Position numbers and translations under genes: made by a program. DNA of 64,000 nucleotides from Lachnospiraceae bacterium (GTDB taxonomy: Bacteria; Bacillota; Clostridia; Lachnospirales; Lachnospiraceae). Position 1 is the first letter of the stretch. Each line of letters starts with the position of its first letter. This document shows, piece by piece, positions 9,135 through 27,789 of this stretch. Location of the stretch: assembly GCA_017620375.1 (NCBI GenBank), contig JAFZQN010000080.1, forward strand, positions 8,130-72,129. Direction: 5' to 3'. Below the pieces are notes generated by a model, which saw nothing but the letters and a program-made list of their open reading frames with translations, searched no databases and had not been told where the DNA came from.

Positions 9135-10571
9135 TTATACGTTTAATACGCTTTCAACCGGTGCTTCATAGATCCTGTCAAGTACGGGCTTTACAAAATC
9201 AGCCAGGAATTCTTCAACCTGGGAAACGGAACGTCCGGTATACTTTGCAGGATCGAGGTTAGAGCGGAGCTCTTCGTCACTTAACTTAAATGCAGGATCG
9301 GCTGCGATACGATCGATAAGGTCGCAAGCCTTTCCTTCAAGCTTAACACCTGCGGCAGCAGCATGAGAATGAACACGGAGTCTCTCATGAAGCTCCTGAC
9401 GGTCGCCGCCACGCTTAACGGATTCCATCATGATGTTTTCGGTAGCCATGTAAGGAAGCTTTTCCATAACTCTGCGGGTGATGACCTTATCATATACAAC
9501 AAGTCCTGAGGAGATGTTGATGTAGATGTTTAAGATCGCATCAACTGCGAGGAATGCTTCTGCTACACTGATCCTCTTGTTAGCGGAGTCATCCAGAGTT
9601 CTTTCAAACATCTGGGTAGCTGCGGTCATGGCGGGGTTAAGTGAATCTATAATGACGTAACGGGCAAGTGCATCGATACGTTCACTTCTCATAGGATTTC
9701 TCTTGTAAGGCATAGCCGATGAACCGATCTGGGTGCTCTCGAAAGGCTCTTCCATTTCTTCGAAGGACTGAAGGATACGGAGATCCTGAGTAAACTTATA
9801 TGCACTCTGTGCAAAGCCGGAGAGTACATTTAAGAAGAATGAGTCGAGCTTTCTTGAATATGTCTGTCCGGATACAGGCATGCATGCTTCAAATCCGAGA
9901 TCTGCTGCGATAAGAGCCTCAAGCTCTTTTACCTTAGCCTCATCATTCTCAAAAAGCTCCATGAAGCTTGCCTGTGTACCTGTGGTACCCTTTGATCCGA
10001 GAAGCTTAAGTCTACCCATCTGGAACTCAAGGTTTTCAACGTCCATAAGGAGTTCGTTGAGCCAGAGAGTAGCACGCTTTCCGACGGTGGTCAGCTGAGC
10101 GGGCTGAAGGTGGGTATATGCGAGGCAGGGAAGTGCTTTATACTTTTCAGCAAACTCGGAAAGGTTCTTTATAACCTGGCCGGCTTTCTTAAGAACGAGT
10201 TTTGAAGCCTCTCTTAAAACGATAACATCGGTATTGTCCGTTACATAGCAGGAGGTAGCTCCCAAGTGGATGATGGGCTCTGCCTTCGGGCACTGAAGTC
10301 CGTATGCGTAAACATGGCTCATAACATCATGACGTACAATCTTTTCTCTGGCTTTTGCTTCATCAAAGTTGATGTCGGTAGCATGAGCTTCAAGCTCGGC
10401 TATCTGCTCGTCAGTGATATTAAGTCCTAATTTCTGCTCAGATCTTGCAAGTGAGATCCAAAGCTTTCTCCATGTACGGAATTTAAATTCCTCGCTGAAA
10501 ATGTACTGCATATCGTCGCTGGCATAACGTGTTGAAAGCGGGGATATGTATTTTGTTCTGTCCTCTGACAT
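9135..10571 (-). CDS. purB: Adenylosuccinate lyase
   Basis: 478-aa fumarate-lyase superfamily protein ('GSSAMPYKRNP' signature). Confidence 0.93.
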   Translation of the reverse strand: MSEDRTKYISPLSTRYASDDMQYIFSEEFKFRTWRKLWISLARSEQKLGLNITDEQIAELEAHATDINFDEAKAREKIVRHDVMSHVYAYGLQCPKAEPIIHLGATSCYVTDNTDVIVLREASKLVLKKAGQVIKNLSEFAEKYKALPCLAYTHLQPAQLTTVGKRATLWLNELLMDVENLEFQMGRLKLLGSKGTTGTQASFMELFENDEAKVKELEALIAADLGFEACMPVSGQTYSRKLDSFFLNVLSGFAQSAYKFTQDLRILQSFEEMEEPFESTQIGSSAMPYKRNPMRSERIDALARYVIIDSLNPAMTAATQMFERTLDDSANKRISVAEAFLAVDAILNIYINISSGLVVYDKVITRRVMEKLPYMATENIMMESVKRGGDRQELHERLRVHSHAAAAGVKLEGKACDLIDRIAADPAFKLSDEELRSNLDPAKYTGRSVSQVEEFLADFVKPVLDRIYEAPVESVLNV

Positions 10572-10604
10572 ACGGCCTCCTAATTTGATATCTTGATTTT
10601 CTAT

Positions 10605-10657
10605 TTAAGGCTTCCCCTCAGAGGGGAAGCTGTCAGCGTAAGCTGACTGATGAGGTG
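10605..10657. repeat. GC-rich two-hairpin intergenic repeat, family B, copy 1
   Basis: cttcccctcagaggggaag, then tcagc-gtaa-gctga, then gatgaggtg, abutting the purN stop codon. An inverted copy lies at 52965-53017. Confidence 0.65.
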
Positions 10658-11263
10658 TTAAGCCTCGCTAAGTTTCTTTGCCACAATTTCGGCAGCCTGC
10701 GGAAGTATGATCCACTCGGCCTGTTCCATTACTCTTTTTTGTAAAACTTCCGGGGTATCACCGTCTAACACATCTACGGCCTTCTGAAGGATGATCTTGC
10801 CGCCGTCGGTCACTTCGTTTACGAAATGAACGGTAGCGCCGGTTACCTTTACTCCGTAGTTTAATACTGCTTCATGTACATGCAGCCCGTAGAATCCGTC
10901 TCCACAGAAGGAGGGGATAAGAGCGGGGTGTACATTTATGATCTTATCGGGATACTGCTTTACAAAGTCTGCCGAAAGCACCAGCATGAAGCCGGCCAGG
11001 ATTATCATCTGTATCCCGTTTTCATCCAGAGTCTTTTTAAGGTCTGCCTCAAAGGAGGGCTTGTCGGGATATTTCTTCCTTTCGACTACTACTGACTTGA
11101 TACCTGCTTTTGCAGCACGCTCTAAAGCAAACACTCCGGGTTTGCTGGCAACCACCAGGGCTATCTCACCGTGGGGTATCTTTCCTGCCTTTTCGGCATC
11201 TATAAGTGCCTGCAGGTTTGTTCCGCCACCGGAAACGAAAACTGCGATCTTGGTTTTATTCAT
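10658..11263 (-). CDS. purN: Phosphoribosylglycinamide formyltransferase
   Basis: 201 aa with 'IAVFVSGGGTNLQALID' and 'IINVHPALIP'. Confidence 0.93.
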   Translation of the reverse strand: MNKTKIAVFVSGGGTNLQALIDAEKAGKIPHGEIALVVASKPGVFALERAAKAGIKSVVVERKKYPDKPSFEADLKKTLDENGIQMIILAGFMLVLSADFVKQYPDKIINVHPALIPSFCGDGFYGLHVHEAVLNYGVKVTGATVHFVNEVTDGGKIILQKAVDVLDGDTPEVLQKRVMEQAEWIILPQAAEIVAKKLSEA

Positions 11264-11310
11264 GAGAGTTCCTTTCTTTTCAATCAGAGAACTTTCCCTC
11301 TGATTGAAAT

Positions 11311-12351
11311 TTATACCAACTCAACTCCATCGATACCCTCAACAAGTTCACCGATGACATATGCATCAACATCGTTAGCTTTAAGATTTGCGATAGCCTT
11401 GTCCACATCCTCGGGAGCTACGATAACGCTCATGCCTACACCCATGTTGTAGGTGTTGAACATATCATGCTCATCGATCTTACCTTCTTTTGCAAGGAGG
11501 TTGAAGATGGGAAGAACTCTTACGTCTGACTTCTTTATGCGAGCGCCCAAGCCCTTCTTTATGCTTCTCGGGATATTCTCATAGAAGCCGCCGCCTGTGA
11601 TATGGGAGATACCCTTAACCTTAACTTCGTCGATGAGCGCCAGGATGGGCTTTACATAGATCTTGGTAGGAGTAAGAAGTGTCTCGCCAAGACCCTTGCC
11701 GCCGAGCTCGGGGATCGGGATGGTAAGATTGGTATGCTCTATATTGAATACTTTTCTAACGAGTGAAAAACCATTTGAATGAACACCTGTTGAAGGAAGG
11801 GCGATAACTACGTCGCCTGCTTTCTGTGTTGAGGTGTCGATAACGTTTGCCTTATCAACGATACCTACAGAAAAGCCTGCAAGGTCATATTCTTCCTCGG
11901 GCATAAGTCCGGGATGCTCAGCAGTCTCGCCGCCGATAAGTGCACAGCCTGCCTGAACACAGCCTTCAGCCACACCGCCTACGATGGTAGCTATTTTCTC
12001 GGGGATGTTCTTGCCGCATGCGATATAGTCAAGGAAAAACATGGGACGTGCGCCGCAGCAGATGATGTCGTTTACACACATAGCTACGCAGTCAATACCT
12101 ACGGTATCATGCTTATCCATCAGGAATGCCAGCTTGATCTTTGTACCAACACCGTCGGTACCGCTGACGAGTACGGGCTCCTTCATACCGGCGATATTGG
12201 GAACAAAGAGTCCTCCGAAACCTCCGATATCAGGGGTGCTTTCAGATGTTTTGGTCCTGGCGATGCTGCTCTTCATGAGCTCCACTGCCTTGTAGCCTGC
12301 GGTGATGTCAACACCGGCTGCTTTGTAGCTTTCGCTGAAACTGTTGTTCAT
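11311..12351 (-). CDS. purM: Phosphoribosylformylglycinamidine cyclo-ligase (AIR synthetase)
   Basis: 346 aa with 'YKAAGVDI', 'GTDGVGTK' and 'GGETAEHPG'. Confidence 0.93.
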
Positions 12352-12421
12352 GGTTTTCCTCCGTTTGTAAGCTTTGGTTTATAGTATTTTATTGCATTTA
12401 CTTTGTATTTATAAAACACCA

Positions 12422-12454
12422 AGAAGTTGTCATGGTTAAACCATGGCAACTTCT
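12422..12454 (-). terminator. 14-bp stem hairpin enclosing the purE stop codon (weak intra-operon terminator or processing/stability element)
   Basis: agaagttgtcatgg-ttaaa-ccatggcaacttct. On the minus strand it is followed by TGGTGTTTTAT. Confidence 0.3.
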
Positions 12455-12921
12455 GTATTTGCCTGTAAAACTTTTTCTGAATTGGCCTTTCGTTCTTTAT
12501 CCAATTTATCTGCAAGGGTATCATCATTAAGCGATAAGATTTCTATAGCAAGCAGTGCTGCATTGCTCGAACCGTCTATACCAACGGTCGCAACCGGTAT
12601 GCCGGAAGGCATCTGTACCGTAGAAAGGAGAGCATCCATACCGCCTAAGGAAGATGCATTTACGGGTATGCCGATAACGGGTATGGTGGTATTGGCTGCA
12701 ATGGCTCCTGCCAAGTGTGCTGCCATTCCGGCAGCGGCTATGATAACTCCAAATCCGTTGGCTCTGGCGTTAACGGAGAAGTCTCTTGCCTCTACAGGCG
12801 TCCTGTGTGCTGAAAACACATGTATTTCATAAGGAACCTCAAATCTCTTTAAGATATCTACTGCCTTTTCGAGCTTGGGAAGATCGCTCTTGCTTCCCAT
12901 GATGATGCCTACTTTTTTCAT
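12436..12921 (-). CDS. purE: N5-carboxyaminoimidazole ribonucleotide mutase (class I PurE-like)
   Basis: 161 aa with 'IIMGSKSDL' and 'AGMAAHLAG'. Confidence 0.9.
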   Translation of the reverse strand: MKKVGIIMGSKSDLPKLEKAVDILKRFEVPYEIHVFSAHRTPVEARDFSVNARANGFGVIIAAAGMAAHLAGAIAANTTIPVIGIPVNASSLGGMDALLSTVQMPSGIPVATVGIDGSSNAALLAIEILSLNDDTLADKLDKERKANSEKVLQANTEVAMV

Positions 12922-13380: not shown

Positions 13381-13602
13381 TTAGAACCAAGGCCAAAACC
13401 ACCAACTCTTCTTTTTGTAATGGACCGTCTTCATACCAGTATATCCACCACATACATTTTTCGGTTGTTCTACTTCTTCATAACCGATAACCTCACCGGT
13501 AGAAGAAAGAATCTCCTTGGGTGTGGGAGGATTGTAAGGTATACATTCAGTTGCAGAAAATGTAAGAACCTCAACCTCTGGAGTTACATATGCCTTCTTC
13601 AT
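13381..13602 (-). CDS. Lasso-type precursor-like peptide P1 (73 aa) with Trp-rich C-terminus
   Basis: MKKAYVTPEVEVLTFSATECIPYNPPTPKE...HYKKKSWWFWPWF. I take the ATG at 13602 (RBS GGAGG, complement of 13611-13615) rather than the track's GTG at 13611. The leader has the YxxPxVxxL...T motif shared with P2-P5. Confidence 0.6.
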   Translation of the reverse strand: MKKAYVTPEVEVLTFSATECIPYNPPTPKEILSSTGEVIGYEEVEQPKNVCGGYTGMKTVHYKKKSWWFWPWF

Positions 13603-14365
13603 TTGTTTCACCTCCGTTCTTATTTAAAATGAATTTATTGTTAATTATAGTATTGTAAACTACTTGAGCCGCTTCTGGATCCATATTACATTCAAGTTTG
13701 TAAAAGGGAAGGCTTCCAACCAATTTAAGATATAAATTCATGACTAGAGCTTTTTGACTAGGATTTGTTGGTACATGAGTACGCTTCATTAACATGTCCA
13801 ACGATTCTTTAACTCCGAGCGGTTTAACTTGGTTTTCTGTAGCTCTTTCAAGTTTTACTATCGCTTTTAGTGGTGCAGCAATGTTGTTGCTAAGATGATG
13901 CTTTCCGTTCCATGGAGTACCATAGACTTTCATTTCATCAACACGGATCAGAGGCTTGTCGTCATTGATCATCTGAACTCTTGAACCGAATACTTCTCGC
14001 CAAAGTCTGGTGTGAGTACTTTTCCCGGTGCCGCTTTTGGCGGTAAAGATTATTCCTTTGCCATCTATGGCAAGCGCGGATCCGTGAAGCATTATTGCGT
14101 TATACTCGCTTAATTTGTCTGCAATTAGAATATGAATTGCATTGTTTTCTAGAAAACTTTTAGGATAAGCGACCTTTGGACTTCCTTCTGACTCATTTAA
14201 GACATCAAAATCCGCTTGAACACCAATAATGGTCTCTTCGTCAGGTTCAACCGAAAAAGCAGGTTTTTTTGAAGTATAATATCCTGTAAAAAATGTCTTA
14301 TTCTCTTCATACTTGCATTTGACATTTATAGGAATGCCGGCAAGTTCAATACTAAAATCTTCCAC
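13571..14365 (-). CDS. HPr-kinase-related P-loop kinase, divergent from the three PadeK-like paralogs
   Basis: 264 aa with 'MLHGSALAIDGKGIIFTAKSGTGKSTHTRLW'. GTG start with RBS AGGAG. Its 3' end overlaps the P1 start by 32 nt. Confidence 0.6.
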   Translation of the reverse strand: MEDFSIELAGIPINVKCKYEENKTFFTGYYTSKKPAFSVEPDEETIIGVQADFDVLNESEGSPKVAYPKSFLENNAIHILIADKLSEYNAIMLHGSALAIDGKGIIFTAKSGTGKSTHTRLWREVFGSRVQMINDDKPLIRVDEMKVYGTPWNGKHHLSNNIAAPLKAIVKLERATENQVKPLGVKESLDMLMKRTHVPTNPSQKALVMNLYLKLVGSLPFYKLECNMDPEAAQVVYNTIINNKFILNKNGGETNEEGICNSRG

Positions 14366-14453
14366 AGAAGCTCCTGATAACTAATTCTTTTGTATAAAAA
14401 CTCAAGTCGAAATAATATATCCCAAATGAATTAACGATTATTTTCATTAGTAT

Positions 14454-14481
14454 ATTATATTATCAACATGCATTTGTGCAA
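14454..14481 (-). promoter_or_regulatory. Promoter candidate for the kinase-P1 unit
   Basis: Minus strand: TTGCAC, 16-nt spacer, TATAAT. Confidence 0.4.
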
Positions 14482-14650
14482 GACTTCTAACAGAATTGTA
14501 ATAAATTTACCTATGAAACAATACTCAAAGTGATTAGGGATATGAAGATGACGAAGATCAAAGACGCCGGCTATATTCCCTTCTATATTAGGACAAGAGT
14601 TACAGACAGCCGACAAAAATGGTAGATTTTAACACAGTCTATGAGATAGT

Positions 14651-14701
14651 AAAGAATAAAGCCCCCAAAGCCCTTGTTATACAAGGATTTAGAGGGCTTT
14701 T
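14651..14701 (-). terminator. Terminator-like hairpin downstream of the module-1 cyclase
   Basis: Minus strand: aaagccct...ccttgt-ata-acaagg...gcttt, followed by a G/T-rich tail (gggggctttattcttt). Confidence 0.4.
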
Positions 14702-14816
14702 GACTTCAAAAATTGTCAAAAACAGGGTATTAAAAGTGATTGCAAGTATTTTGACAGAGTTATTAAGAAAGCGATCAGTTAAGGAGTAACCGAGAAAGAT
14801 CATTAATGAGAACTTT

Positions 14817-16727
14817 TTATAATGATAGGGAAATTTCTCTGGTTTTTTTGAGAGTCTGTTGTGCACTGATCAAGTTATTTAGGCAGTTAATGGTTCTTAT
14901 ATCTTGTATACTTTCTTCATAAGTTGGTTTTTCTTTATTGACAAAGTTTCTTAGTTTGTTAAAATCTATGTATTTACCCCAGGTTGCTTCATCAAGTTTG
15001 GAAACAACTGCATTCTTCATAGATAAGTACTTATCATACCAGTTTGGATCATTAGGAAGATTTTTTTTGCTGGTAGTTGACTTTTCAACTAATTTATATA
15101 ATGAAGGGGGCATAATATCCTTAAAAGCTTCACGAAAGATACTGCGATTTTGACCCGGCTTCAAAAATTGCTGCCTCGGAATGGATACGGCATAATCAAT
15201 TACACGATAATCCAGATATGGGATTAAATATCTTACATCACAAAATGCACCTTGTAGCGATACATTGTCTAATCGATTTCGACTTCCGCCGGTCAAAATA
15301 TACTTTTTTGTATCAATATTAAAGTATAGTTTTGAAGGGGCATCCTTTTTATGTTCTTGTGAAAAAACGTCATTAATTAATCCTTTTGCATTGATTGGGC
15401 AAGAAAAAGGGTTACGAAGACTTTTCTTCCCGCTGGCAATATTATTTCTGATGCTCTTTATCGTCCTTATAAGTCGGCGTGGCTGTCCGCTTAATCGCGC
15501 ATACATATATTTGAAATAATCAAAATATTCATGACTATGATACATTTCAAACGGATCAGCACGATGACTGACGCCTTCGTCACCGCCATGTCCTGTAAAG
15601 ATAGCTTTTATCCCATAATAGTTCATAAAAAGGCTTGTTTCGGTGATTTTGATCGTATTAATGTACGGCGGGGTAACAAAGTCATCTTCTGAGAGATTAT
15701 CGGTTGTTATTTCATTGCATATCTTATAATTATTTTGGAGAGGCATAGTCATATCAGGGATAAAATGCCTGTAATTACAAGTTATTTTTTCCTGATCGCA
15801 AATATCTTTTATTACTAATCTTTCATCATCGTCAGAGTATGGCAGATTATCAGGAGAATCTGACCACGAAAAGTAATAGCATTTTCTGCCAAGTTTATGA
15901 ATTAAAATGCTGATCACACCCGAATCAAGACCTCCGGATAGTTCAGCGCCTACATCTCCGGTAATCACATCCAGTCTCCGTTTTATGGAGTCGGTGATTA
16001 ATTCTTTAAGGTTATTCTTGTATTGAAGGTCGCTGTTAAACTTGATTTTTTTCTTACCTAATTCCCAGAATTTTATGGATGACTGATCAAATTTGCCATT
16101 ATTAAACTTTATCGTCAGACAGGTTCCTGGTTTGACACAAAAAATGTTAGAATATTCGGTATCCTCGAGGCCTAAAGTTTTGTATCCCATAATGCTTCTA
16201 AAAATCCATTGTTCATTAAGAGTTATATTTGCACGTTGAATACCGGTAAGACCTCTGATATCGGTGGAGAAAGCAATAAAATCATTCTCGATGCAATAGA
16301 ATAAGGGTCTAATCCCCATATGATCTCGGAATAGGGTAAGTTCTTTTTTTTCAGAATTATAGATGGCTCCTGAGAAATCTCCGTTAATATTTTTGAGTGC
16401 AGAGAGTCCTCTTGCGGTTATATAGGAAATTAATAATTGTTCATCAGATACAGTGGGAGGAACTGAACAATCTTCTAGCAGTTCAGATCTATTGTATATT
16501 AATGCATCAATGGCATATATCCGGCTATTGTTACTTATCACTGGTTCACTAGTATCAATGCTTTGATTGATTCTATCTTGACAGCAACCGATATAGTAAT
16601 CCTTTGATTGAATGATTTTATTATTGTATTTTCCATAAGGGAGATTCCAGGATTGCATCCCTTTTATCTCTTTATCGATTTCCATGGAAAAAGTGTACTT
16701 GTTTATCAGACCAAAAATGCTACTCAT
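14817..16727 (-). CDS. Asparagine-synthetase-like lasso cyclase (C protein), module 1
   Basis: 636 aa. The N-terminus 'MSSIFG' lacks the Cys2 glutaminase nucleophile of true AsnB. PP-loop 'AELSGGLDSGV'. Adjacent to precursor and kinase genes. Confidence 0.8.
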   Translation of the reverse strand: MSSIFGLINKYTFSMEIDKEIKGMQSWNLPYGKYNNKIIQSKDYYIGCCQDRINQSIDTSEPVISNNSRIYAIDALIYNRSELLEDCSVPPTVSDEQLLISYITARGLSALKNINGDFSGAIYNSEKKELTLFRDHMGIRPLFYCIENDFIAFSTDIRGLTGIQRANITLNEQWIFRSIMGYKTLGLEDTEYSNIFCVKPGTCLTIKFNNGKFDQSSIKFWELGKKKIKFNSDLQYKNNLKELITDSIKRRLDVITGDVGAELSGGLDSGVISILIHKLGRKCYYFSWSDSPDNLPYSDDDERLVIKDICDQEKITCNYRHFIPDMTMPLQNNYKICNEITTDNLSEDDFVTPPYINTIKITETSLFMNYYGIKAIFTGHGGDEGVSHRADPFEMYHSHEYFDYFKYMYARLSGQPRRLIRTIKSIRNNIASGKKSLRNPFSCPINAKGLINDVFSQEHKKDAPSKLYFNIDTKKYILTGGSRNRLDNVSLQGAFCDVRYLIPYLDYRVIDYAVSIPRQQFLKPGQNRSIFREAFKDIMPPSLYKLVEKSTTSKKNLPNDPNWYDKYLSMKNAVVSKLDEATWGKYIDFNKLRNFVNKEKPTYEESIQDIRTINCLNNLISAQQTLKKTREISLSL

Positions 16728-16762
16728 TATAAAACCTCATGTTATGGGGGAATAGTTAATAG

Positions 16763-16796
16763 TAAAAAAATAACCCTTGTCATAAATGACAAGGGT
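16763..16796 (-). terminator. Strong rho-independent terminator between precursor P2 and its cyclase
   Basis: Minus strand: acccttgtca-ttta-tgacaagggt followed by TATTTTTTT. Confidence 0.75.
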
Positions 16797-16812
16797 ATGA
16801 GCCGGAAAACAA

Positions 16813-17025
16813 TTATGATCTTGCACCTGTGGTTGCTTCTTCTTTACCATACTCGGTAGTAGCCTGCTGCTGATTCTGAGGAAGTGCACACTGCCATGTA
16901 GCTGCTTCCTGAACATAGCCATAAAGAGTACCATCGGACTTTATTTCCTGATAAACATTAAAATCACCATTAGCGGTCTCGCCAATGTTAAGAACTACAA
17001 CTTCTGCATTTTTCCAAGTCTTCAT
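16813..17025 (-). CDS. Lasso-type precursor-like peptide P2 (70 aa), C-terminal Ser
   Basis: MKTWKNAEVVVLNIGETANGDFNVYQE...EEATTGARS. RBS GGAGG 8 nt upstream. Leader motif WxxAxVxxL...T(-2). Confidence 0.65.
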   Translation of the reverse strand: MKTWKNAEVVVLNIGETANGDFNVYQEIKSDGTLYGYVQEAATWQCALPQNQQQATTEYGKEEATTGARS

Positions 17026-17083
17026 TATTTATTCCTCCAAAAATATAATAAAAATTCTATGCTTCACATAGTTTTCTTGTTTA

Positions 17084-17112
17084 ATAATACAGATTAATGA
17101 AATGGTTTTCAA
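17084..17112 (-). promoter_or_regulatory. Dedicated promoter candidate for precursor P2
   Basis: Minus strand: TTGAAA, 17-nt spacer, TATTAT. Confidence 0.5.
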
Positions 17113-17161
17113 GGTTTCTAACAAATATGATAGAAATTAATTATATAAATTAATAGGCCTG

Positions 17162-18067
17162 TTAAATCAAGGATAGAACCTTGTGATATATTTCGTCTAG
17201 TGTATCTTTGTTCTCGGGTCTTATAATAAGGTATATCTTAAATTTTGAGGCTGTTTTCATACACATATCAATAACTTCCTTTGAATTCTCCCATGACCCT
17301 TTAAGACGGTGTAAGAACAGATTATCCCGTATGGACATAAAACATTCGAATCCGCTTAACTTTCGTATAGTTAGTTCTTCTACAGGGGCCTTAATAATAT
17401 AAAAAAAAGAATTTGCTTTTTGAGGATTGTATTCGAAAATATCGTTAACAGGAACAAGATATTTGTCTTTATCTTCGTTTATGTAAATAAGATTTTTTTT
17501 ATCAAGTCCTCTTTTTTCAATCTCATTTGAACAAAGCTTTTGGAAAGGGAAAGCGGGATATACCAGACATTCATCATTGCTAAAGCGAATACCGGCTACA
17601 TCGTCTGCTAACAGTCTTAGTCTGGTTTCCAATAATTTTCCGGCAAGGGAAGACTTCCCTGCTCCAGGGGTACCCGAAATTAGAACAGCCCCTTCTTTTG
17701 TTGATACAGCACTGCAATGAATGGTTAATACGCCTCTTTGTAAGAGTGCGATGGAAAGACAAAACCCTGTAATCCATACAGAAATCGTATCATAATCGTA
17801 ACCTTCTTTTATTTTGACCCAAATTTCGTTGCCGTTTTGTATCAGATAGAACCCACCCCTGTTATAAAAAGCGGATTTATTAAGGCCTATTTCATATAAT
17901 TTTTCTACGGCATCATGTTCCGCCAAAAAACGGATAACATCAGTTTCAACATCTCTTTCTCTTACTGTTATCACATCTTGCACTGTATCTGAATCTCCTG
18001 CCGGAACGAGAAGATTCAATTCAAATTCAGACTCCAATATAATACCATAAATTTTATATCTGTGCAT
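17162..18067 (-). CDS. HPr-kinase-like P-loop kinase (PadeK-type lasso precursor kinase candidate), module 1
   Basis: 301 aa with 'YKIYG' N-terminus, 'IHCSAVSTKEGAVLISGTPGAGKSSLA' and 'YPAFPFQKLC'. Paralogous to 40987-41910 and 48586-49518. Confidence 0.75.
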   Translation of the reverse strand: MHRYKIYGIILESEFELNLLVPAGDSDTVQDVITVRERDVETDVIRFLAEHDAVEKLYEIGLNKSAFYNRGGFYLIQNGNEIWVKIKEGYDYDTISVWITGFCLSIALLQRGVLTIHCSAVSTKEGAVLISGTPGAGKSSLAGKLLETRLRLLADDVAGIRFSNDECLVYPAFPFQKLCSNEIEKRGLDKKNLIYINEDKDKYLVPVNDIFEYNPQKANSFFYIIKAPVEELTIRKLSGFECFMSIRDNLFLHRLKGSWENSKEVIDMCMKTASKFKIYLIIRPENKDTLDEIYHKVLSLI

Positions 18068-18316: not shown

Positions 18317-19705
18317 ATGAGGGGCAGTCACAGACATGCTAATATAAATATTGCGTATATGTGCTTTGATGTACTGTTTGGTATTTTGGCATATATTATC
18401 GCGTCGGCTATAGATAAGGGCAAGAGTTTTGCAAATATAGATTACCTATTGGTATGTACAAGCTCAGTATTACTTATCATTGTATTTAATAAAAACAAGA
18501 GACTTTATGATACGACCTTATTCTTTTATATAGACAGATGGCTTAGTTATTTGACCAGGTCATTTATTGCTGCGAATCTGGTTGTAACAATACTTGCTTT
18601 TTATGTTGGGCATTGTGGAGTAGAAACCAGGTTTTATGTTGTATTTCTTGTAACAGAGTATCTTCTGTTAATTACTAGTGCTTTTTTTACAAGATGGGTG
18701 CTCAGAAGAACAAGGATGTATGCTGTTAGGACACTGCTTGTAGGCACTAAGACAGATTACGAGAGAGTAATACGTTTCTTAAAGCACAATAGTATGAGTG
18801 CTGAGGTTATAGGATATATATCCGAGACAACAACATATCCTGAGGGAGATGATACACCGTTCCTCGGGACTATAGACGATCTTGAAGAAGTAGTCCATAA
18901 GAATTCCATAGATCAGGTATTCTTTATGCAGCACAGAAAAAACCCGGTAAACCTTGAGAAACATGTTGAGTTGTGTATGGAACTGGGTTTGGTGGCTCGT
19001 GTCTTGGTACACCCGTATCGTATAGGTCGTGCCCATTCTGTTATATGCAGTATAGGAACATATCCTGCCGTAACATATCATAACGTAGTGTTGAACGTGT
19101 ATGCAAAAGCGGCAAAGAGGATATTTGATGTTATATTCAGCATAGTCGGTATAATAGTGTTTGCAATACCGATGCTGATCACAGCTATCGCTATAAAGCT
19201 TGATTCAAAAGGCCCTGTTATATTTAAACAGACAAGAGTAGGGCTTAACGGCAGACATTTTAAGATGTTTAAATTCAGAAGTATGGTACAGGATGCCGAA
19301 GCAAAAAAGAAAGAGCTGATGGAAAAAAATAAAGTATCCGGCGGCTTGATGTTTAAAATGGATGATGACCCCAGGATCACTAAGGTAGGTAAATTTATAC
19401 GTAAGACATCGATAGATGAGTTGCCACAGTTCTTTAACGTTTTGTTCGGTACTATGAGTTTGGTAGGTACCCGTCCGCCCACAGTGGATGAGGTATCAAA
19501 GTATGATACAAGGCATTGGAGAAGGCTTTCAGTTAAGCCCGGTATAACCGGCATGTGGCAGACTAGCGGTAGAAGCGAGATAACGGATTTTGAAGAAGTA
19601 GTTGCTCTTGATAAGGAGTATATAGACAACTGGAGTATGTGGCTGGATATCAAGATCCTTTTCAAGACTGTAATTCAGGTATTTATGAGAAAGGGAGCAT
19701 GTTAA
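18317..19705 (+). CDS. Initiating polyprenyl-phosphate sugar phosphotransferase (WbaP/EpsL-type bacterial sugar transferase)
   Basis: 462 aa with N-terminal TM helices and the C-terminal motifs 'KRIFDVIFS...GPVIFKQTRVGLNGRHFKMFKFRSM...DELPQFFNVLFGTMSLVGTRPP'. Confidence 0.85.
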   Translation: MRGSHRHANINIAYMCFDVLFGILAYIIASAIDKGKSFANIDYLLVCTSSVLLIIVFNKNKRLYDTTLFFYIDRWLSYLTRSFIAANLVVTILAFYVGHCGVETRFYVVFLVTEYLLLITSAFFTRWVLRRTRMYAVRTLLVGTKTDYERVIRFLKHNSMSAEVIGYISETTTYPEGDDTPFLGTIDDLEEVVHKNSIDQVFFMQHRKNPVNLEKHVELCMELGLVARVLVHPYRIGRAHSVICSIGTYPAVTYHNVVLNVYAKAAKRIFDVIFSIVGIIVFAIPMLITAIAIKLDSKGPVIFKQTRVGLNGRHFKMFKFRSMVQDAEAKKKELMEKNKVSGGLMFKMDDDPRITKVGKFIRKTSIDELPQFFNVLFGTMSLVGTRPPTVDEVSKYDTRHWRRLSVKPGITGMWQTSGRSEITDFEEVVALDKEYIDNWSMWLDIKILFKTVIQVFMRKGAC

Positions 19706-19717
19706 AGCTATAATACA

Positions 19718-20701
19718 ATGATTTCTGTAGTGGTTCCTATATACAAAGTAGAAAGATTCTTAAACAAATCTATAGAAAGTTTGTTAAATCAGACATATAA
19801 GGATTTTGAATTAATCCTTGTAGATGATGGTTCGCCGGATAATTGTCCCCAAATATGTGATGACTGGGAGAAAAAAGAACCTAAGATAAAGGTTTTTCAC
19901 AAAAAAAATGAAGGTTTGTCTTCTGCTCGGAACAGCGGTATCGAACACGCAAGTGGAGAGTATATTATTTTCCCGGATCCCGACGATTGGGTGGAACCGG
20001 ATTATTTAGAAAGGTTGATAAACCTTAGAGAAGAATTTAAAGCGGATTTAAGCATTTGCGGTCATTATCATGGTACAAATATATATGATCCTGAAGCTGA
20101 ATTGATAGTTCTGACAATGGAGGAAGCACTCGAAAAACTGATGATGCCACACTCTTTCTGTGGGTATACATGGAATAAACTATATAACTTGGATATCATT
20201 AAAAGAAATCAGCTTCGATTTGATGTTGAATTAGGAATGGTTCAGGATTTACATTTTAATGTTCGGTATTTTCAGTATTGTGAGAAAATAGTTTATGATC
20301 CGGTTCCTTTATATCACCATACGATAGAAAATGGGGTAACATCGCGCAATACTCCGCTAACAACACGAAAAATAAGCGGATTATTAACTTATAAGAAAAT
20401 TGCAGACATGACTCACGGAAATTATCCGAATATTGAGCGAATATCTTACTGTTCTCTTTGTAAAATGTGTCTTGATTATGTTGATATATACTATAAAACC
20501 AAGATGAATTCAAAAGAAATACTTAATCTTTTACAGAGCAATTTTGTAAAATATAAAAAGTATTTTTATAATGGTAAAGCATTTTCTGTTAGATTTAAAC
20601 GTTTTTCAAGACTTATGGTAATACATCCACGATTATACTGGTATGCCCGCCGTTTTTATTGGCGCTTCTTGGTACCAAATAAAAAGAAAGACACAACATG
20701 A
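19718..20701 (+). CDS. Family 2 glycosyltransferase
   Basis: 'ISVVVPIYKVERFLNKSIESLLNQTYKDFELILVDDGSPD'. Confidence 0.85.
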   Translation: MISVVVPIYKVERFLNKSIESLLNQTYKDFELILVDDGSPDNCPQICDDWEKKEPKIKVFHKKNEGLSSARNSGIEHASGEYIIFPDPDDWVEPDYLERLINLREEFKADLSICGHYHGTNIYDPEAELIVLTMEEALEKLMMPHSFCGYTWNKLYNLDIIKRNQLRFDVELGMVQDLHFNVRYFQYCEKIVYDPVPLYHHTIENGVTSRNTPLTTRKISGLLTYKKIADMTHGNYPNIERISYCSLCKMCLDYVDIYYKTKMNSKEILNLLQSNFVKYKKYFYNGKAFSVRFKRFSRLMVIHPRLYWYARRFYWRFLVPNKKKDTT

Positions 20702-21822
20702 AGATAATTATATATAATAATCTCATCTATAGCGGAGGCGTGGAAAGACTTTTTCCGTTACTGGCAGAAAGTTTAAGACAGAGAGGACATGAGATTACGG
20801 TATTAGCCTCATCTGGAAGTAAGGAAGAGTTTGATACAGCGTTTTCTACAGAAATACGTTGTATTTGTACGGGATTGCCTTGTAAGAAGTTTGACAGCAA
20901 GTTAAAATCAGGATTATATTTTTTAAAAAGAAAGGCATACAAAATAATCCTACTTTTTAGAGGACTGATAAAAAAATATGATGTTGTAATTGCTTTTAAA
21001 GAAGGGCATGTTATAAAGAATGCATTAAAAATCAGAGCAAAGAGGAGATATGCCTGGATTCATGCGGATCTAACTATTTTCTGCAATACTTTAGGATTTA
21101 CAAAACCATTTTCAAGCATTGAAGATTTTAAAAAGTGTCTGGAAAAGTATGATAAAGTTGTATGTGTCTCTGAAACTACAAGAAGAAGTGTTATAGAGAT
21201 GGTCGGAGATACTGGGAATTTGTGTGTAAGATATAATCCTATAGATTGGCAAAGAATACGCACACAGGCACAGACAAAAGCGGAAATTACTAAAAATCAA
21301 AATTGTCCTTTAATTGTTTCTGTCGGAAGGCTTGATCCGATAAAAAATTATATGCTGCTATTAGAAGCTGGTAAAATCCTTTATGAAAAACAAGAGTTTG
21401 AAATGTGGATATTAGGGGAAGGACCCGAGAGAAATAAAATTGAGAAGTATATACAAGATAATAACTTGGAGTTTGTCAGGTTATTAGGCTTCCAACATAA
21501 TCCGTTTCCGATTTTAAAACAAGCAGATCTGTATGTAAGTACATCGCTTAGTGAGAGTTATGGACTTTCAGTTCAAGAAGCCTTAATTCTTGGAGTTCCT
21601 GTTATAGCAGTAAAGTGTCCCGGGATACTTGAAGCATGGGATCCCGGATTCGGAAAACTGATTGATAACTCCGCGGAAGAATTAGCAGATACCATATATC
21701 AGTTATTTAATAATACTGAGCAATTAGAGAGTTATCGCAAGACGATAGAAGATAAATATCCTTTAAAGCAGGTGTTTGAACAAAGGGTAGATGAAATATG
21801 TAGATTAATAGAAGAATTATAA
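20698..21822 (+). CDS. GT-B glycosyltransferase (GT4/Glycos_transf_1 type)
   Basis: 374 aa with C-terminal 'SLSESYGLSVQEALILGVPVIA'. Confidence 0.8.
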   Translation: MKIIIYNNLIYSGGVERLFPLLAESLRQRGHEITVLASSGSKEEFDTAFSTEIRCICTGLPCKKFDSKLKSGLYFLKRKAYKIILLFRGLIKKYDVVIAFKEGHVIKNALKIRAKRRYAWIHADLTIFCNTLGFTKPFSSIEDFKKCLEKYDKVVCVSETTRRSVIEMVGDTGNLCVRYNPIDWQRIRTQAQTKAEITKNQNCPLIVSVGRLDPIKNYMLLLEAGKILYEKQEFEMWILGEGPERNKIEKYIQDNNLEFVRLLGFQHNPFPILKQADLYVSTSLSESYGLSVQEALILGVPVIAVKCPGILEAWDPGFGKLIDNSAEELADTIYQLFNNTEQLESYRKTIEDKYPLKQVFEQRVDEICRLIEEL

Positions 21823-21857
21823 GAATAACGCAAATATAAGTATTCTTGGAGAGAAGT

Positions 21858-22862
21858 ATGTGGAAGCCTAGCGTGAGTGTCATTGTTCCGGTATACAATA
21901 CGGAGAAATATCTTAGGAAGTGTTTGGATTCTTTGGCAGATCAAACATTAAAAGATATTGAGATAATAATTATTGATGATGGGTCAACGGATTCATCTCC
22001 GGTGATCATTAAAGAATATACAGAGAAAGATTCGAAAAGATTTATAAGCCTGGCTCAGGAAAACAGCGGGCAAGCAGTTGCCAGAAACAAAGCCTTAAAA
22101 ATGTGTACCGGTGAGTATATCGGTTTTTTGGATTCTGATGATTTTGTTCGTACGGATATGTTTGAACGTATGTACAATGCGGCCGTGGCTGAAGATGCTG
22201 ATTATGTGGCATGCGGATATACAGATATAACCTATGATGAAGCTGGTAATGAGATAGAATTGGAGCATTATGTACACTCAAAACTTGCTTATAAGACTAA
22301 GGATATGTTTTTTGGAGCACTCGCTTCTCCGTTTCTTCATTTATATAAGAAAGAAGTGCTTATTGAATCCGGTGCGGATTTCCCGGAAGGGGTGGTTTAT
22401 GAGGATACGGCATTTTATCTGAATATTATACCTTATATTAAAAAGCTTGCAGTAATAGATGAACCGTTGGCGTACAGAGTAAGACGCAGTAATTCTACTA
22501 TGTCAACATTTAAAGCTGCTAAGGTAAGACAGATTTTTAAGGTACTTGATTATTCGCTGGATTATTATAAGAAAAAAGGGTTTTATGAAGAATATCAAAA
22601 AGAGATGGAGTATTTCTGTGTAAGAGTATTGCTCTGTAGCTCTATGCAACGCATCTGTAAAGTTGAAGACAGTAAAGAAAGAAAAGCTCTTCAAAATGAA
22701 ACTCTTGATTACCTTTATCGTAATTTCCCGAACAGAAAATCTAACAAATATTTTAAGGGCGGCTTTCAACATTTATATATGAAGACATTTAACAAATTGA
22801 CAGCGCCTTTTTATGCATGGTTGTTAAGAAAAAAAGCACGTAGGGAAAGAGAGTATATCTGA
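21858..22862 (+). CDS. Family 2 glycosyltransferase
   Basis: 'VSVIVPVYNTEKYLRKCLDSLADQTLKDIEIIIIDDGSTD'. I prefer the ATG at 21858 (RBS GGAGAG) over the track's TTG at 21846. Confidence 0.85.
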   Translation: MWKPSVSVIVPVYNTEKYLRKCLDSLADQTLKDIEIIIIDDGSTDSSPVIIKEYTEKDSKRFISLAQENSGQAVARNKALKMCTGEYIGFLDSDDFVRTDMFERMYNAAVAEDADYVACGYTDITYDEAGNEIELEHYVHSKLAYKTKDMFFGALASPFLHLYKKEVLIESGADFPEGVVYEDTAFYLNIIPYIKKLAVIDEPLAYRVRRSNSTMSTFKAAKVRQIFKVLDYSLDYYKKKGFYEEYQKEMEYFCVRVLLCSSMQRICKVEDSKERKALQNETLDYLYRNFPNRKSNKYFKGGFQHLYMKTFNKLTAPFYAWLLRKKARREREYI

Positions 22863-23806
22863 TGGATAATGTTAAAATCTCCGTAGTTATAGCATCATAT
22901 AATGGGGCAGATTATTTGGTTGAGCAACTGGAATCAATTCGTACCCAGACTTTACCTCCAGATGAACTTATCATATGCGATGATCGTTCAAAGGACAACA
23001 CGGTTGAGGTGGCTGAAGAATATATAAAGGAGCATAAACTTGAAGGTTCATGGCGGATAACAGTCAATGAACAAAATCTGGGATATGCGGATAATTTTGA
23101 TCATGCCGCTAAACAGGCAAAAGGAGAGCTTATATTCTTCTCTGATCAGGACGATGTCTGGAATTCTGACAAAATCGAGATCATGACTAAAATAATGGCA
23201 GAACATCCTGAGTGTAAAGTGCTCTGCACCGACTACGTGCCTTGGTATACCGGGGAAAATGCTCCCCAAGCTCCAAAGAGTGTCATGGACAGAATGCCGG
23301 ATAACGGGGTATTGGAAACAGTCAAATTGAAGAAAAAAAGTGTGTATATAGGAGCTCTTGGCTGCTGTATGTGCGTAAGACGAGAATTTTACACAGATAT
23401 CAGTTCTTATCGATTCTCTGGTTGGGCGCAGGACGACCGCATGTGGAAGATGGCACAGTGTGAACCCGGAGGATGTTTGATATTACACAGAAACCTTATA
23501 AAACACAGGATCCACGGAAACAATACTTCTACTTATGGGAAGTACCACACAGTGGAACGAAGGGTTAAACTATTCAGCGAAATGCTCGAAGCGGAAAAAC
23601 AGATGCTTAAATATCTTGAAGATAAAAAAGCAGAAAAAACAGATATTAAACTGATCATTAAGCATATACACATGATGGAAAAAAGAATAGACCTGATCAA
23701 GAACAGAAAACTGCTTAAGACAGTACCGTTAATCGGGTACATCTCGTATTATGAAAGAAAAAAGTCATACCTTGTAGAATTGTATATGGCAGTTAAAGGA
23801 AAGTAA
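22862..23806 (+). CDS. Family 2 glycosyltransferase
   Basis: 'ISVVIASYNGADYLVEQLESIRTQTLPPDELIICDDRSKD' and 'FSDQDDVW'. Confidence 0.8.
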   Translation: MDNVKISVVIASYNGADYLVEQLESIRTQTLPPDELIICDDRSKDNTVEVAEEYIKEHKLEGSWRITVNEQNLGYADNFDHAAKQAKGELIFFSDQDDVWNSDKIEIMTKIMAEHPECKVLCTDYVPWYTGENAPQAPKSVMDRMPDNGVLETVKLKKKSVYIGALGCCMCVRREFYTDISSYRFSGWAQDDRMWKMAQCEPGGCLILHRNLIKHRIHGNNTSTYGKYHTVERRVKLFSEMLEAEKQMLKYLEDKKAEKTDIKLIIKHIHMMEKRIDLIKNRKLLKTVPLIGYISYYERKKSYLVELYMAVKGK

Positions 23807-23835
23807 CATTTTATTAGTGTCGGGAGGTGATAAGT

Positions 23836-25968: not shown

Positions 25969-26049
25969 TTGTTGATTAATAAGATATTATATGTTAGTAT
26001 ATCATTCTTGGGGAATTTTAATAAAAATATAGATTAGGAGTATAGCCGG

Positions 26050-26814
26050 ATGAATATCGAAAAGATAAATTTATATGAAATTGAAAACCAGTTGTTATAT
26101 GCAGCTATCGACAAGATAACTGTTGAAATAATCAATAAACAAAAAAACGAGGGAGCACATGTTATTGCATTAACAGGTTGTTCTCCTCTGGCAGGAACCA
26201 CATCTACTGCGATCAGTATCGCTATAGCGATGGCAGCGTCATCTCGAAAAACCGTTTTGGTTGATTGTGACTTAAGAAAATCAGGCGAATATAAGAAATT
26301 AAATGATAGAATTCAAAAAGGGCTGGCTGATTATGTATCGGTGAAATCTGATATTGCTATGACCGCAGATGATCTGATTTATCCTACAAATGTTGATAAT
26401 CTGTTTTATATACCGGGAGGGAAAACAGACGAGAATGCCACTCGGGTATTATGTTCCGAAAAGGTGAATATATTGATAGAAGAGCTTAGAAATACTTATG
26501 AGTGTATCATTTTGGATTGCCCTTCTATAAGCGTAGTTCCGGATGCTCAGATCATATTTAAAAAGGTAGATGGAATAATTGTTGTGTCAGCGCTGGGAGA
26601 GACCAAACGTTCTCAGATAAAGGATTCCAGGCTGCTGATGGAGAATTATAAGGATAAGTATTACGGGATGATAGTCAATAAGATTCCTCGGGATATTTAT
26701 AAGAAGAATGTTAAAAATGCGGATTATTATTTGACAGATAAAAAAGGAAAGCAGAGATTTGCAAAGAACAAAGCATTTAAGAAGCGAAAAGTAGAAAATG
26801 ATGCAAATGATTAA
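26050..26814 (+). CDS. CpsD/CapB-like BY-kinase-family ATPase with degenerate Walker A
   Basis: 254 aa with 'VIALTGCSPLAGTTSTAISIAIAMA...VLVDCDLRK...ECIILDCPS'. The usual G-x-G-K-[ST] lysine is absent, and there is no C-terminal Tyr cluster. Confidence 0.6.
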   Translation: MNIEKINLYEIENQLLYAAIDKITVEIINKQKNEGAHVIALTGCSPLAGTTSTAISIAIAMAASSRKTVLVDCDLRKSGEYKKLNDRIQKGLADYVSVKSDIAMTADDLIYPTNVDNLFYIPGGKTDENATRVLCSEKVNILIEELRNTYECIILDCPSISVVPDAQIIFKKVDGIIVVSALGETKRSQIKDSRLLMENYKDKYYGMIVNKIPRDIYKKNVKNADYYLTDKKGKQRFAKNKAFKKRKVENDAND

Positions 26815-26857
26815 GATGATTATTCTGAAAGAATAAATTAAAAGAGAGGAAAAAACA

Positions 26858-27778
26858 ATGAAAAAAAGAATAAAAATCCTGTTAACCTTGCTTCTTACTT
26901 GCATGGTAATAATATTTGAGACAGTAGGTCCAGCTTGGGCAGCAGAAGATGGAACAGAAGATGGAACAGAATATGAGCCTTTTATTGTAGTTTCTTCCTA
27001 CAGAGTAACAGATGATATTATTACTCCGGGAAAAAAATTTGATCTGATAATAGAAGTAGAAAATACTGATACTAAAGTAGCTACCCGAGGTTCTATCGTT
27101 ACGATAAATTTTCCTGAAGGAATAAGCACTTCCTATGGATCTTCCAATCAGATGTACTTAAAATCTCTTAAGCCCGGTGAAAAAAGAGAAATTACTTTTG
27201 AACTGTATGCATCACCTTATTATTCACGTTCATCTGTTCCTTTTGGAATAAATATTTCTTCGGAATTAAGAACAAGCAGTGCTACTATTTATGCTCCTCT
27301 TCTTCTTGACTTAAGTGCCTTTAAGGTTGTTTCTCAAACTATTCCTGAAGAAGCCGGTATAGGAGAGAAAATAGCAGCCTCACTTTCTTTTAAATCTCTT
27401 ATGCAAGAGAAATTAAGTAATGTAGTTCTTTCGGTTTATGTAGATGATGATACGAAACCGGTAGCCACAGCGAATATAGGTAATATCTCTGCGGAGGCAT
27501 CAAAAACTCAAAATATCACCTTTTTTATAAATGAGAAAGGGCAGCATTCAGTTAGATTTGAGCTCTCTTATAGTTTTGCAGAAGGAGATTATTCCTCCGC
27601 TGAGTTGTATTCAGGAACAATACAGATAAATGATTCTGTTGATGATAATGAACTTTTGGCAAACAGCATTCAGGAAGAAAAATTGTCAGGGCAGGACAAA
27701 CTGATAATCGGGGGATGTTTAGGACTATCTTTGCTTTTGGGCATTGGAATAGTTTTGATAGTTAAAAAATATAACTAA
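26858..27778 (+). CDS. Secreted, C-terminally membrane-anchored protein of unknown function
   Basis: Signal peptide '...TVGPAWA' and C-terminal TM 'LIIGGCLGLSLLLGIGIVLIV-KKYN'. Confidence 0.4.
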   Translation: MKKRIKILLTLLLTCMVIIFETVGPAWAAEDGTEDGTEYEPFIVVSSYRVTDDIITPGKKFDLIIEVENTDTKVATRGSIVTINFPEGISTSYGSSNQMYLKSLKPGEKREITFELYASPYYSRSSVPFGINISSELRTSSATIYAPLLLDLSAFKVVSQTIPEEAGIGEKIAASLSFKSLMQEKLSNVVLSVYVDDDTKPVATANIGNISAEASKTQNITFFINEKGQHSVRFELSYSFAEGDYSSAELYSGTIQINDSVDDNELLANSIQEEKLSGQDKLIIGGCLGLSLLLGIGIVLIVKKYN

Positions 27779-27789
27779 GGAGACAGGCT

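Follow-up and report, generated by a model that had tools for sequence, protein, structure and literature searches.

Five precursor peptides with lasso-type leaders and three divergent cyclases at a polysaccharide locus of a Lachnospiraceae bacterium

Precursor, cyclase and kinase genes of the locus

The 64,000-nt stretch of DNA analysed here (the window; positions 8,130–72,129 of contig JAFZQN010000080.1, assembly GCA_017620375.1, from a Lachnospiraceae bacterium) contains five small open reading frames (ORFs), P1–P5, each adjoining genes for an Asn-synthetase-like cyclase and an HprK-like kinase (Table 1). All five encoded peptides share the leader M-K-x-[W/Y]-x-x-[P/A]-x4-[LI]-x4-T, with the Thr 13 residues after the W/Y, and a six-frame motif scan of the window revealed no further plausible copies. 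The motif [Y/W]xxPx[L/V/I/A/F], bound by the recognition element (RRE) of ribosomally synthesised peptides with post-translational modifications (RiPPs), reads YVTPEV in P1, WTSPVV in P3, WENPEM in P4 and WKKPVL in P5. In P2 it reads WKNAEV, with Ala replacing Pro, a variant that is also found in other members of the family. P2–P4, and probably P5, are new members of a Lachnospiraceae branch of the paeninodin-type lasso peptide family that has been catalogued but not characterised chemically, and in this gut and rumen branch a long core and an unusual first residue are the norm. In what follows, residues are counted from the conserved Thr (T+10 is the tenth residue after it), and Thr(−2) and Thr(−3) stand for leader cleavage after T+1 and T+2, respectively.

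P2 (MKTWKNAEVVVLNIGETANGDFNVYQEIKSDGTLYGYVQEAATWQCALPQNQQQATTEYGKEEATTGARS, 70 aa) is recorded by NCBI as hypothetical protein J5372_05990, and P1 as J5372_05975, of a Lachnospiraceae metagenome-assembled genome. The identical P2 peptide is found on 16 public metagenome contigs, and every one of its relatives reads T-A-N-G-x6-E and has Ser at the end. Comparison with an 80%-identical orthologue gave a ratio of nonsynonymous to synonymous substitution rates (dN/dS) of 0.25 overall and 0.21 over the 50-aa core; thus, the long tail of P2 is coding and constrained. A ribosome-binding site (GGAGGA) is located 8 nt ahead of the P2 ATG. The strong terminator-like hairpin between P2 and the cyclase gene probably acts as an attenuator and so keeps the ratio of precursor to enzyme high, a typical arrangement in RiPP operons with an over-expressed precursor. 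The satellite module to which P2 belongs spans 13381–18067, in the order kinase–P2–cyclase–ScmC-like gene–P1, without B1 and B2. The 450 bp that separate the cyclase stop from the ScmC-like gene (14366–14816) hold no ORF longer than 56 aa; a promoter-like site at 14466–14437 (minus strand) is possibly a separate promoter for the ScmC-like gene and P1.

The genes at 37446–44473 make up a complete paeninodin-type set, arranged as NTP_transf_5–B2–cyclase–HprK-like kinase–P3–P4–B1–ABC exporter and followed by a two-component system. The orthologous cluster in locus L020 has the same order, and two-component genes are common beside lasso clusters in the rumen. Polysaccharide genes, about 19 kb including glycosyltransferases, separate the first satellite module from this central cluster. 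The polysaccharide locus itself (18317–37433, plus strand) encodes a Bac_transf priming transferase, several GT2/GT4 enzymes, Wzz-like and AAA_31 proteins, Wzy and a flippase. A capsule or polysaccharide-locus setting of paeninodin clusters and of linear polyphosphorylated peptide (LPP) clusters has been described in Bacilli (Popov et al. 2026, PMC13381572). The second satellite, also without B1 and B2, is a triad of P5, cyclase and kinase (46323–49518).

The three cyclases of the window have their best NCBIfam match in NF033535 (149–199 bits) and carry Asn_synthase and GATase_7 domains, a PP-loop of the form S[SG]GLDS and the N-terminus MS[AS]I[WF]G. As this N-terminus is devoid of the Cys nucleophile, they are not glutamine-dependent AsnB; that assignment was considered and rejected, with Ser at residue 2 in all three proteins and TIGR01536 scores of 89–124 bits against a cutoff of 267. 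The three enzymes are only 21–25% identical to one another, whereas each shares 75–82% identity with the cyclase beside the orthologous precursor elsewhere (82% for the P2-module enzyme), and therefore each precursor type has a cyclase lineage of its own. The P5-triad cyclase is 77% identical to that of locus L014 and 40% identical to that of L018. Its variant PP-loop, SSGLDS, also occurs in the L014 orthologue, and the L018 enzyme has the usual SGGLDS. A scan of a genome collection with an alignment of the three cyclases returned 7 loci only, mostly distant and of little use for precursor comparison.

Table 1. Features of the window that bear on the five precursor peptides. A slash in a peptide marks the end of the module that closes with the conserved Ser.
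Feature	Position	Strand	Basis
P1 precursor, 73 aa, YxxP leader, MKKAYVTPEVEVLTFSAT-EC-IPYNPPTPKEILSSTG...KKKSWWFWPWF	13381–13602	−	No acid at T+10/T+11
ScmC-like/HprK-related P-loop protein, 264 aa	13571–14365	−	PF27840 ScmC; 3′ end overlaps P1 start
Lasso-type macrolactam cyclase, 636 aa, P2 module	14817–16727	−	PP-loop SGGLDS, no Cys2 nucleophile
Intrinsic-terminator-like hairpin, P2 stop to cyclase start	16773–16796	−	10-bp stem and T-run
P2 precursor, 70 aa, MKTWKNAEVVVLNIGET-AN-GDFNVYQE...GARS	16813–17025	−	Thr17 leader, Glu acceptor at T+10, C-terminal Ser
Promoter-like site upstream of P2, TTGAAA-17-TATTAT	17084–17112	−	Consensus match only
HprK-like kinase, 301 aa, P2 module	17162–18067	−	Weak Hpr_kinase_C and HprK_rel_A matches; orthologous loci with same gene order
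NTP_transf_5 protein, family of PsmN	37446–38618	+	PF14907, 1.7e-46
B2 leader peptidase, transglutaminase-like, only B2 in the window	38633–39121	+	NF033537, 71 bits (cutoff 33)
Lasso cyclase, 602 aa, for P3 and P4	39149–40957	+	Domain matches, PP-loop
HprK-like kinase, 307 aa	40987–41910	+	P-loop GTSGAGKS
P3 precursor, 61 aa, ...KVT-EY-DPNGGTRPD-AF...YLYGPS/AGDAGDPTIVGTEA	41998–42183	+	Asp acceptor at T+11, conserved Ser 28 residues after T+2
P4 precursor, 62 aa, ...NMT-AY-GDDTSKEPD-W...TFGPS/GSEHPADAVVKQTQP	42206–42394	+	Asp acceptor at T+11
B1 PqqD-type RRE, only one in the window	42518–42781	+	NF033536, 79.4 bits; PF05402
ABC exporter (D)	42794–44473	+	Translation; L020 orthologue with ABC_membrane and ABC_tran
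Histidine kinase	44436–45320	−	Translation; L020 orthologue with HisKA/HATPase_c
Response regulator	45403–46095	−	Translation; L020 orthologue with Response_reg/Trans_reg_C
P5 precursor, 70 aa, ...KDT-TN-GIYWVDTNEE...DLGRCHNPYWEGNG...NNPFWTGGWGEQ	46323–46535	−	Glu at T+11; Trp/Gly-rich C-terminal ~35 aa conserved
Cyclase, 649 aa, P5 triad	46625–48574	−	PP-loop variant SSGLDS
HprK-like kinase, 310 aa, P5 triad	48586–49518	−	

Acceptor position, core length and cleavage register

A profile built from the five peptides and published relatives led to a set of 63 peptides, and a HMMER scan of 1.84 billion representatives gave 338 matches at E ≤ 1e-3 (representatives at 50% identity). The census comprises 203 distinct peptides, namely the 150 listed of these 338 matches pooled with the earlier 63. 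Its selection motif demanded Thr 13 residues after the W/Y, which means that this spacing is not an independent result of the census, and, because very short ORFs are missed by gene callers, the sample leans to longer peptides.

Asp or Glu is found at T+10 or T+11 in 195 of the 203 peptides (96%), compared with 2–14% at the neighbouring positions, and 200 have Trp in the leader motif. The T+11 class, to which P3 and P4 belong with Asp and P5 with Glu, has 136 members, 131 of them with Asp. The T+10 class includes a Bacilli type (T-M-A-G...D) of 12 members, all ending in Ser and with cores mostly of 17–26 aa, and a Lachnospiraceae type of 35 members, P2 among them, with cores mostly of 27–57 aa, Glu as the acceptor in 28, Gly at T+3 in 32 and a terminal Ser in 26. 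Over the whole census, Gly occupies T+3 in 64% of the peptides. Only eight peptides are without an acceptor; six of these are P5 relatives, and P1 is one of the remaining two. Core length, measured from T+3, has a median of 39 aa; 132 cores (65%) are longer than 33 aa, the maximum among characterised lasso peptides, and 74 have at least 42 aa. Thus, even with the lean of the sample towards longer peptides, the long core is a trait of the family and not a peculiarity of the window. Rumen cores of 21–44 aa have been catalogued in silico, with Thr at −3 and Gly at +1 (Sabino et al. 2020, PMC7533575).

These results change the meaning of a first-pass annotation of the window that had assumed Thr(−2). 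Its core lengths for P1–P5 with cleavage one residue past the conserved Thr (54, 52, 43, 44 and 52 aa), its first residues (C, N, Y, Y and N) and its first acids (E11, E9, D10, E8 and D7) were recomputed and are right under that register. It was also correct in stating that characterised lasso peptides are much shorter and start with Gly, Ala, Ser or Cys; the largest have 30–33 aa, and Asn has been added as a first residue since 2025 (metanodin). The anomalies it reported, however, arise largely from the one assumed register: the odd first residues, and the count of two peptides in five without an acid at ring positions 7–9, are sound as arithmetic but depend wholly on Thr(−2), and only P1 is a true outlier. 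The Glu at position 8 of P4, which had been taken as the acid of the ring, is replaced by Asn in the L020 orthologue; this Glu (T+9) and the tail after the Ser are not conserved between the two peptides, while the Asp at T+11 and TFGPSG are kept.

Under Thr(−2), the rings of the four acceptor-bearing peptides would be N1–E9 in P2, Y1–D10 in P3 and in P4, and N1–D7 in P5, which places an acid at positions 7–9 in P2 and P5 only. Under Thr(−3), they would be G1–E8, D1–D9, G1–D9 and G1–E9, respectively, all of which are canonical. Since the acceptor position is fixed, one textbook rule, either Thr at −2 or a ring of 7–9 residues, has to bend for two-thirds of the family. With Thr(−3), the majority class would keep the 9-residue Asp ring of paeninodin. 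Moreover, T+2 is highly variable in the T+11 class (Y, Q, L, A, H, F, N, K, G, E), and T+3 is Gly in 58% of its members. Cleavage after T+2 therefore seems the most parsimonious register for P2–P5, a choice that we prefer with moderate confidence and that sequence alone cannot decide. The suggestion of the first-pass annotation that P3 might close as D1–D9 (DPNGGTRPD) is reasonable and agrees with the register of the family, and the likeness it saw to the ring closure of paeninodin is borne out by the ...PDAF common to both peptides.

Proposed pathway and alternative readings

Taken together, the window is best described, with somewhat better than even confidence, as one complete paeninodin-type cluster in a polysaccharide locus accompanied by two satellites lacking B proteins, with P2–P5 cleaved after T+2 and closed through acceptors at T+10 or T+11, and with P1 standing apart. 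In the proposed pathway, B1 would bind the WxxP leader, as its homologues suggest, and the HprK-like kinase would phosphorylate a Ser of the linear precursor, C-terminal in P2 and within Y/F-G-P-S in P3 and P4. B2 would then remove the leader beside the invariant Thr, and the cyclase dedicated to each precursor would adenylate the Asp or Glu at T+10 (P2) or T+11 (P3, P4 and P5) and join it to the new N-terminus. The phosphate may finally be glycosylated by the NTP_transf_5 enzyme, and D would export the product.

Several observations weigh against this account. The cyclases of the window score far below the exception-level cutoff of NF033535 (525 bits), and none of the five peptides reaches the cutoff of 27 bits of the paeninodin model NF033524 (P3, 26.2; P5, 20.9; P4, 18.3; no match for P2 and P1), a model of 30 positions built on Bacilli peptides that gives 57.1 bits for paeninodin itself. 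Neither satellite module contains B1 or B2, the intergenic gaps being too small and no candidate ORF being present. Insertions and deletions occur in the ring region of the P5 family, and six relatives in the census are without an acid at T+10 or T+11. Furthermore, the characterised lasso precursors include neither a Thr(−3) example nor a member of this clade, and the only register of the family that is fixed experimentally is Thr(−2). The published PadeB1/B2 product of m/z 1209.50 corresponds to AGPGTSTPDAFQPDPDEDVHYDS, and the GP-PadeA ion of 963.85 also matches (computed against PMC5067487); therefore, the Thr of paeninodin is at −2, with Ala (T+2) as residue 1, Gly (T+3) as residue 2 and Asp (T+10) as residue 9. 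It follows that conservation of Gly at T+3 is no proof of its being residue +1. The spacing of 13 residues between W/Y and Thr is alike in Bacilli and Lachnospiraceae peptides, which argues for an unchanged protease register, and Tyr at T+2 is common to P3 and P4, with T+3 being Asp in the former and Gly in the latter.

An unchanged register, with cleavage after T+1, would draw on the last of these points. P2 would then have the 9-residue ring of paeninodin with Gly as residue 2, and two-thirds of the family, including P3 and P4 (Y1–D10), would have 10-residue rings that begin with a bulky or polar residue. A single B2 and a single cyclase are common to P3 and P4, as is the Tyr at T+2, which is the commonest residue at that position in the T+11 class (34 of 136), and metanodin offers a precedent for Asn1 as in P2. 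A 10-residue ring might be held closed by a phospho-glycosyl Ser or by the long tail; bulky C-terminal modifications were proposed by Zyubko et al. to help hold the thread. On the other hand, reported lasso rings have 7–9 residues, and a literature search for 10-residue rings found nothing relevant. In engineered systems, altering the size of the ring by a single residue strongly cuts production, and Gln at +1, which this register implies in 22 cases, would risk pyroglutamate formation. In addition, the variability of T+2 relative to T+3 sits poorly with its being residue 1, and only cleavage after T+2 lets the majority class retain the ring of paeninodin exactly. We consider Thr(−2) for P2–P5 possible but doubtful.

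A second alternative concerns the length of the products. An aromatic-x-Ser motif is found at core position ~25 (interquartile range 24–27) in 119 of 137 T+11-class peptides, 20 of which end there and 99 of which continue, and Gly directly follows this Ser in 82 of 112 extended peptides of all classes. P3 and P4 accordingly consist of a 28-aa module ending in the conserved Ser, which falls at the place of paeninodin's terminal Ser (HYDS) in the alignment, and a poorly conserved extension of 14–15 aa. A C-terminal Ser is present only in P2, where it is conserved in the subfamily; the conserved Ser of P3 and P4 lies inside the peptide, and P5 and P1 have none at the C-terminus. The C-terminal Ser of paeninodin is reported to be the target of PadeK/ThcoK, which phosphorylate it while the precursor is linear, and PsmN adds a hexose to the phospho-Ser of pseudomycoidin. 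The extension of P3, P4 and about 100 relatives may thus be a follower that is trimmed, leaving mature peptides of ~25–28 aa that end in a (poly)phosphorylated, glycosylated Ser. The constant position of the Ser, the divergence of the post-Ser tail between P4 orthologues with a conserved upstream part, the use of a C-terminal Ser by characterised kinases of this family and the known shortening of lasso tails by endogenous carboxypeptidases are in line with such processing. Trimming is possible but doubtful, however: the cluster has no gene for a dedicated protease, the extensions of P3-type peptides are themselves conserved (GD[AS]GDP[TV]IV), and LppK is an HprK-type kinase that acts on an internal Ser (LPP Ser3; Popov et al. 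2026, PMC13381572). Nor does it explain the length of P2-type peptides, since their Ser is already C-terminal in cores of 27–57 aa; in these, the tail between ring and Ser varies in length.

The first-pass annotation had left a choice between long-tailed lasso peptides and a different amide ligation. For P2, P3 and P4 the lasso reading is supported, and a different ligation is left for P1 and the P5 type only. There, the Asn-synthetase homologue or the kinase might make a non-lasso product, such as a large lariat on the Asp of D-L-G-x-C or a linear phosphopeptide. In other Lachnospiraceae genomes, P5-type triads are isolated among housekeeping genes, and neither B1 nor B2 nor D lies within 10 kb of them (e.g., L014 7019–10210, L018 6972–10219); the triad of the window is an insertion relative to L020 (13317–15697), which lacks it between the response regulator and a polysaccharide synthase; the P5 triad behaves as a self-contained cassette. 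Three P5 relatives (P0062, P0063 and P0135) have no acid at ring positions 7–9 in either register. In contrast to the ring region with its indels, the C-terminal ~35 aa of the family are near-invariant (DLGxCHNPYWxGNG...NP[FY]WxGGWG) and include one invariant Asp. Yet P5 and most of its close relatives have an acid at 7–9 under Thr(−3), their leader is typical of the family, the triad cyclases keep all hallmarks of lasso cyclases, and B1 and B2 might work in trans or, as with pseudomycoidin, might not be needed. AlphaFold2 on the P5 family (21-sequence alignment; mean pLDDT 59, pTM 0.30) found no fold beyond a short helix, so that no structure can be assigned to the conserved tail. As a reading for the P5 type and P1 together, a non-lasso product is regarded as unlikely; P1 taken by itself is treated below.

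The P5-type tail contains two NP[YF]WxGxG-like repeats besides the invariant D-L-G-x-C. In P0135 the motifs are permuted, with GSWGSNGGWG first and YWVDTNxxES last, a sequence order that suggests a modular or circularly permuted core architecture. A core of P5 starting within the tail at GNG... (G1–E8 ring) was also considered and rejected, as positions 7 and 8 are Gln in the relative P0040.

P1 differs from the other four peptides. A single-sequence phmmer-type search with P1 matched only P1 itself, and its homologues were obtained by scanning metagenome contigs with a degenerate DNA pattern. Two homologues were recovered, together with a third that is truncated at a contig end, and all of them overlap the end of a ScmC-like/HprK-related gene, as seen in L025 (1738–2949) and L026 (951–1948). 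The P1-type peptides have in common the leader MKK[AT]YVTPE[VI]E, T-x-C, the motif [DE]ILSSTG and KKK with a Trp-rich C-terminus (KKKSWWFWPWF, KSKKKHGFMPFWPFW and KKKLIYVWPLGWISWPW). The Thr-to-acid distance is 12, 7 and 13 in three of them, and in no register does P1 have an acid at ring positions 7–9. The ring Y1–E8 (YNPPTPKE) proposed for P1 by the first-pass annotation is refuted by these distances and by the absence of the segment from one homologue. As P1 has no acid at T+10 or T+11 and its homologues have no fixed acceptor, P1 is probably not a lasso substrate, and the same probably holds for its two homologues. A linear P1 acted on by the overlapping ScmC-like kinase is more likely, and P1-type peptides may represent linear phosphorylated peptides on a lasso-type leader. 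Directly downstream of P1 lies a purine biosynthesis operon (PurB-, PurN-, PurM- and PurE-like ORFs; 9135–12921, minus strand), at the edge of a low-GC island (G–C content ~35% at 13–44 kb, ~47% at 4–12 kb).

Maturation of one or more of the five peptides outside the current lasso rules, through 10-residue rings that begin with bulky residues such as Tyr (P3 and P4, and about two-thirds of the family) or with P5- or P1-type peptides as distinct B-less RiPPs modified on the ~35-aa Trp/Gly domain or on ILSSTG, is a distinct possibility, short of an even chance. Chance reading frames or decayed remnants, for which the failure of all five peptides to pass the NCBIfam paeninodin cutoff and the scarcity of P1 relatives might speak, are effectively refuted by orthologues with conserved synteny in other species, the dN/dS of P2, its ribosome-binding site, promoter-like site and terminator, and the 338 representatives recovered by the profile search.

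Relation to known systems and significance

The closest characterised systems are those of paeninodin and pseudomycoidin (class II; Paenibacillus/Bacillus), which have the same gene set (split B1/B2, cyclase, HprK-like kinase, PsmN-like NTP_transf_5 protein and ABC exporter), the same leader [W/Y]xxPx4Lx4T, Gly at T+3, an Asp/Glu acceptor about 10 residues after the Thr, a conserved Ser as the expected kinase target, and a similar polysaccharide-locus setting. They differ from the window in having cores of 21–23 aa (42–54 aa here) and the acceptor at T+10 (T+11 in P3, P4 and P5), and the Ser of P3 and P4 is, unlike theirs, internal and followed by an extension. Furthermore, the window combines three divergent cyclases, four kinase-like genes and five precursors with a single B1/B2 pair. 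Lasso formation independent of B proteins has precedents: PsmC alone can make the lasso of pseudomycoidin, and a Stanieria cluster consists of A, C and K without B proteins.

The LasA precursors predicted by Sabino et al. 2020 (PMC7533575) for rumen Lachnospiraceae such as Butyrivibrio, Lachnospira and Eubacterium cellulosolvens have the same leader, MKxWxxPxxxELxIxxTxx/G (slash, cleavage site), read with Thr(−3), Gly1 and Asp8–9. They also share the Ser near the C-terminus, the HPr-kinase, nucleotidyltransferase and two-component genes, and predicted cores of up to 44 aa, and the peptides of the window are further members of this clade. P2, P5 and P1 (51–54 aa) are longer than any peptide in the table of that study, and P3 has Asp, not Gly, at T+3. 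The B-less satellites, the conserved tail of the P5 type and the P1 type are not described there, and the study is itself purely in silico.

LPP clusters (Popov et al. 2026, PMC13381572) likewise combine an HprK-like kinase, an NTP transferase, an RRE and a [Y/W]xxP leader in a polysaccharide locus. Their precursors have 35–200 aa, with a 45-aa core and an internal phospho-Ser, which recalls P1 with its YxxP motif and no usable ring acceptor. The definition of LPP, however, includes a SipW-like signal peptidase I, the leader YxxPxVLxHQxIxFETxxS and no cyclase, whereas the window has cyclases, and P2–P5 have WxxP/A leaders and dedicated cyclases. A SipW-like signal peptidase was found neither in the modules nor among the ORFs scanned, which did not include every ORF of the window. 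P1 as an LPP was thus rejected, its Tyr-to-Thr spacing being 13 and not 15.

Pandonodin (33 aa with an 18-aa tail) and achromonodin-1 (30 aa) demonstrate that long tails or loops, and additions at the C-terminus, are compatible with a lasso fold; both are proteobacterial, are made without a kinase and are 10–20 residues shorter than the cores of the window. Astexin-1, pandonodin and some other lasso peptides accept such additions well, even whole fused proteins.

Among the characterised lasso peptides there is none from Clostridia or Lachnospiraceae, and more than 99% of the predicted Firmicutes lasso peptides are untested. The peptides of the window are not a new kind of system; rather, the locus is a compact and testable case of a large gut and rumen family (at least 338 representatives at 50% identity) in which the fixed acceptor cannot satisfy Thr at −2 and a ring of 7–9 residues together. 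Should the products prove ordinary, the heuristics used for precursor prediction in this clade would still be corrected. With three divergent cyclases and a single B1/B2 pair in one locus, it is a natural test bed for enzyme–substrate specificity and for B-independent lasso formation.

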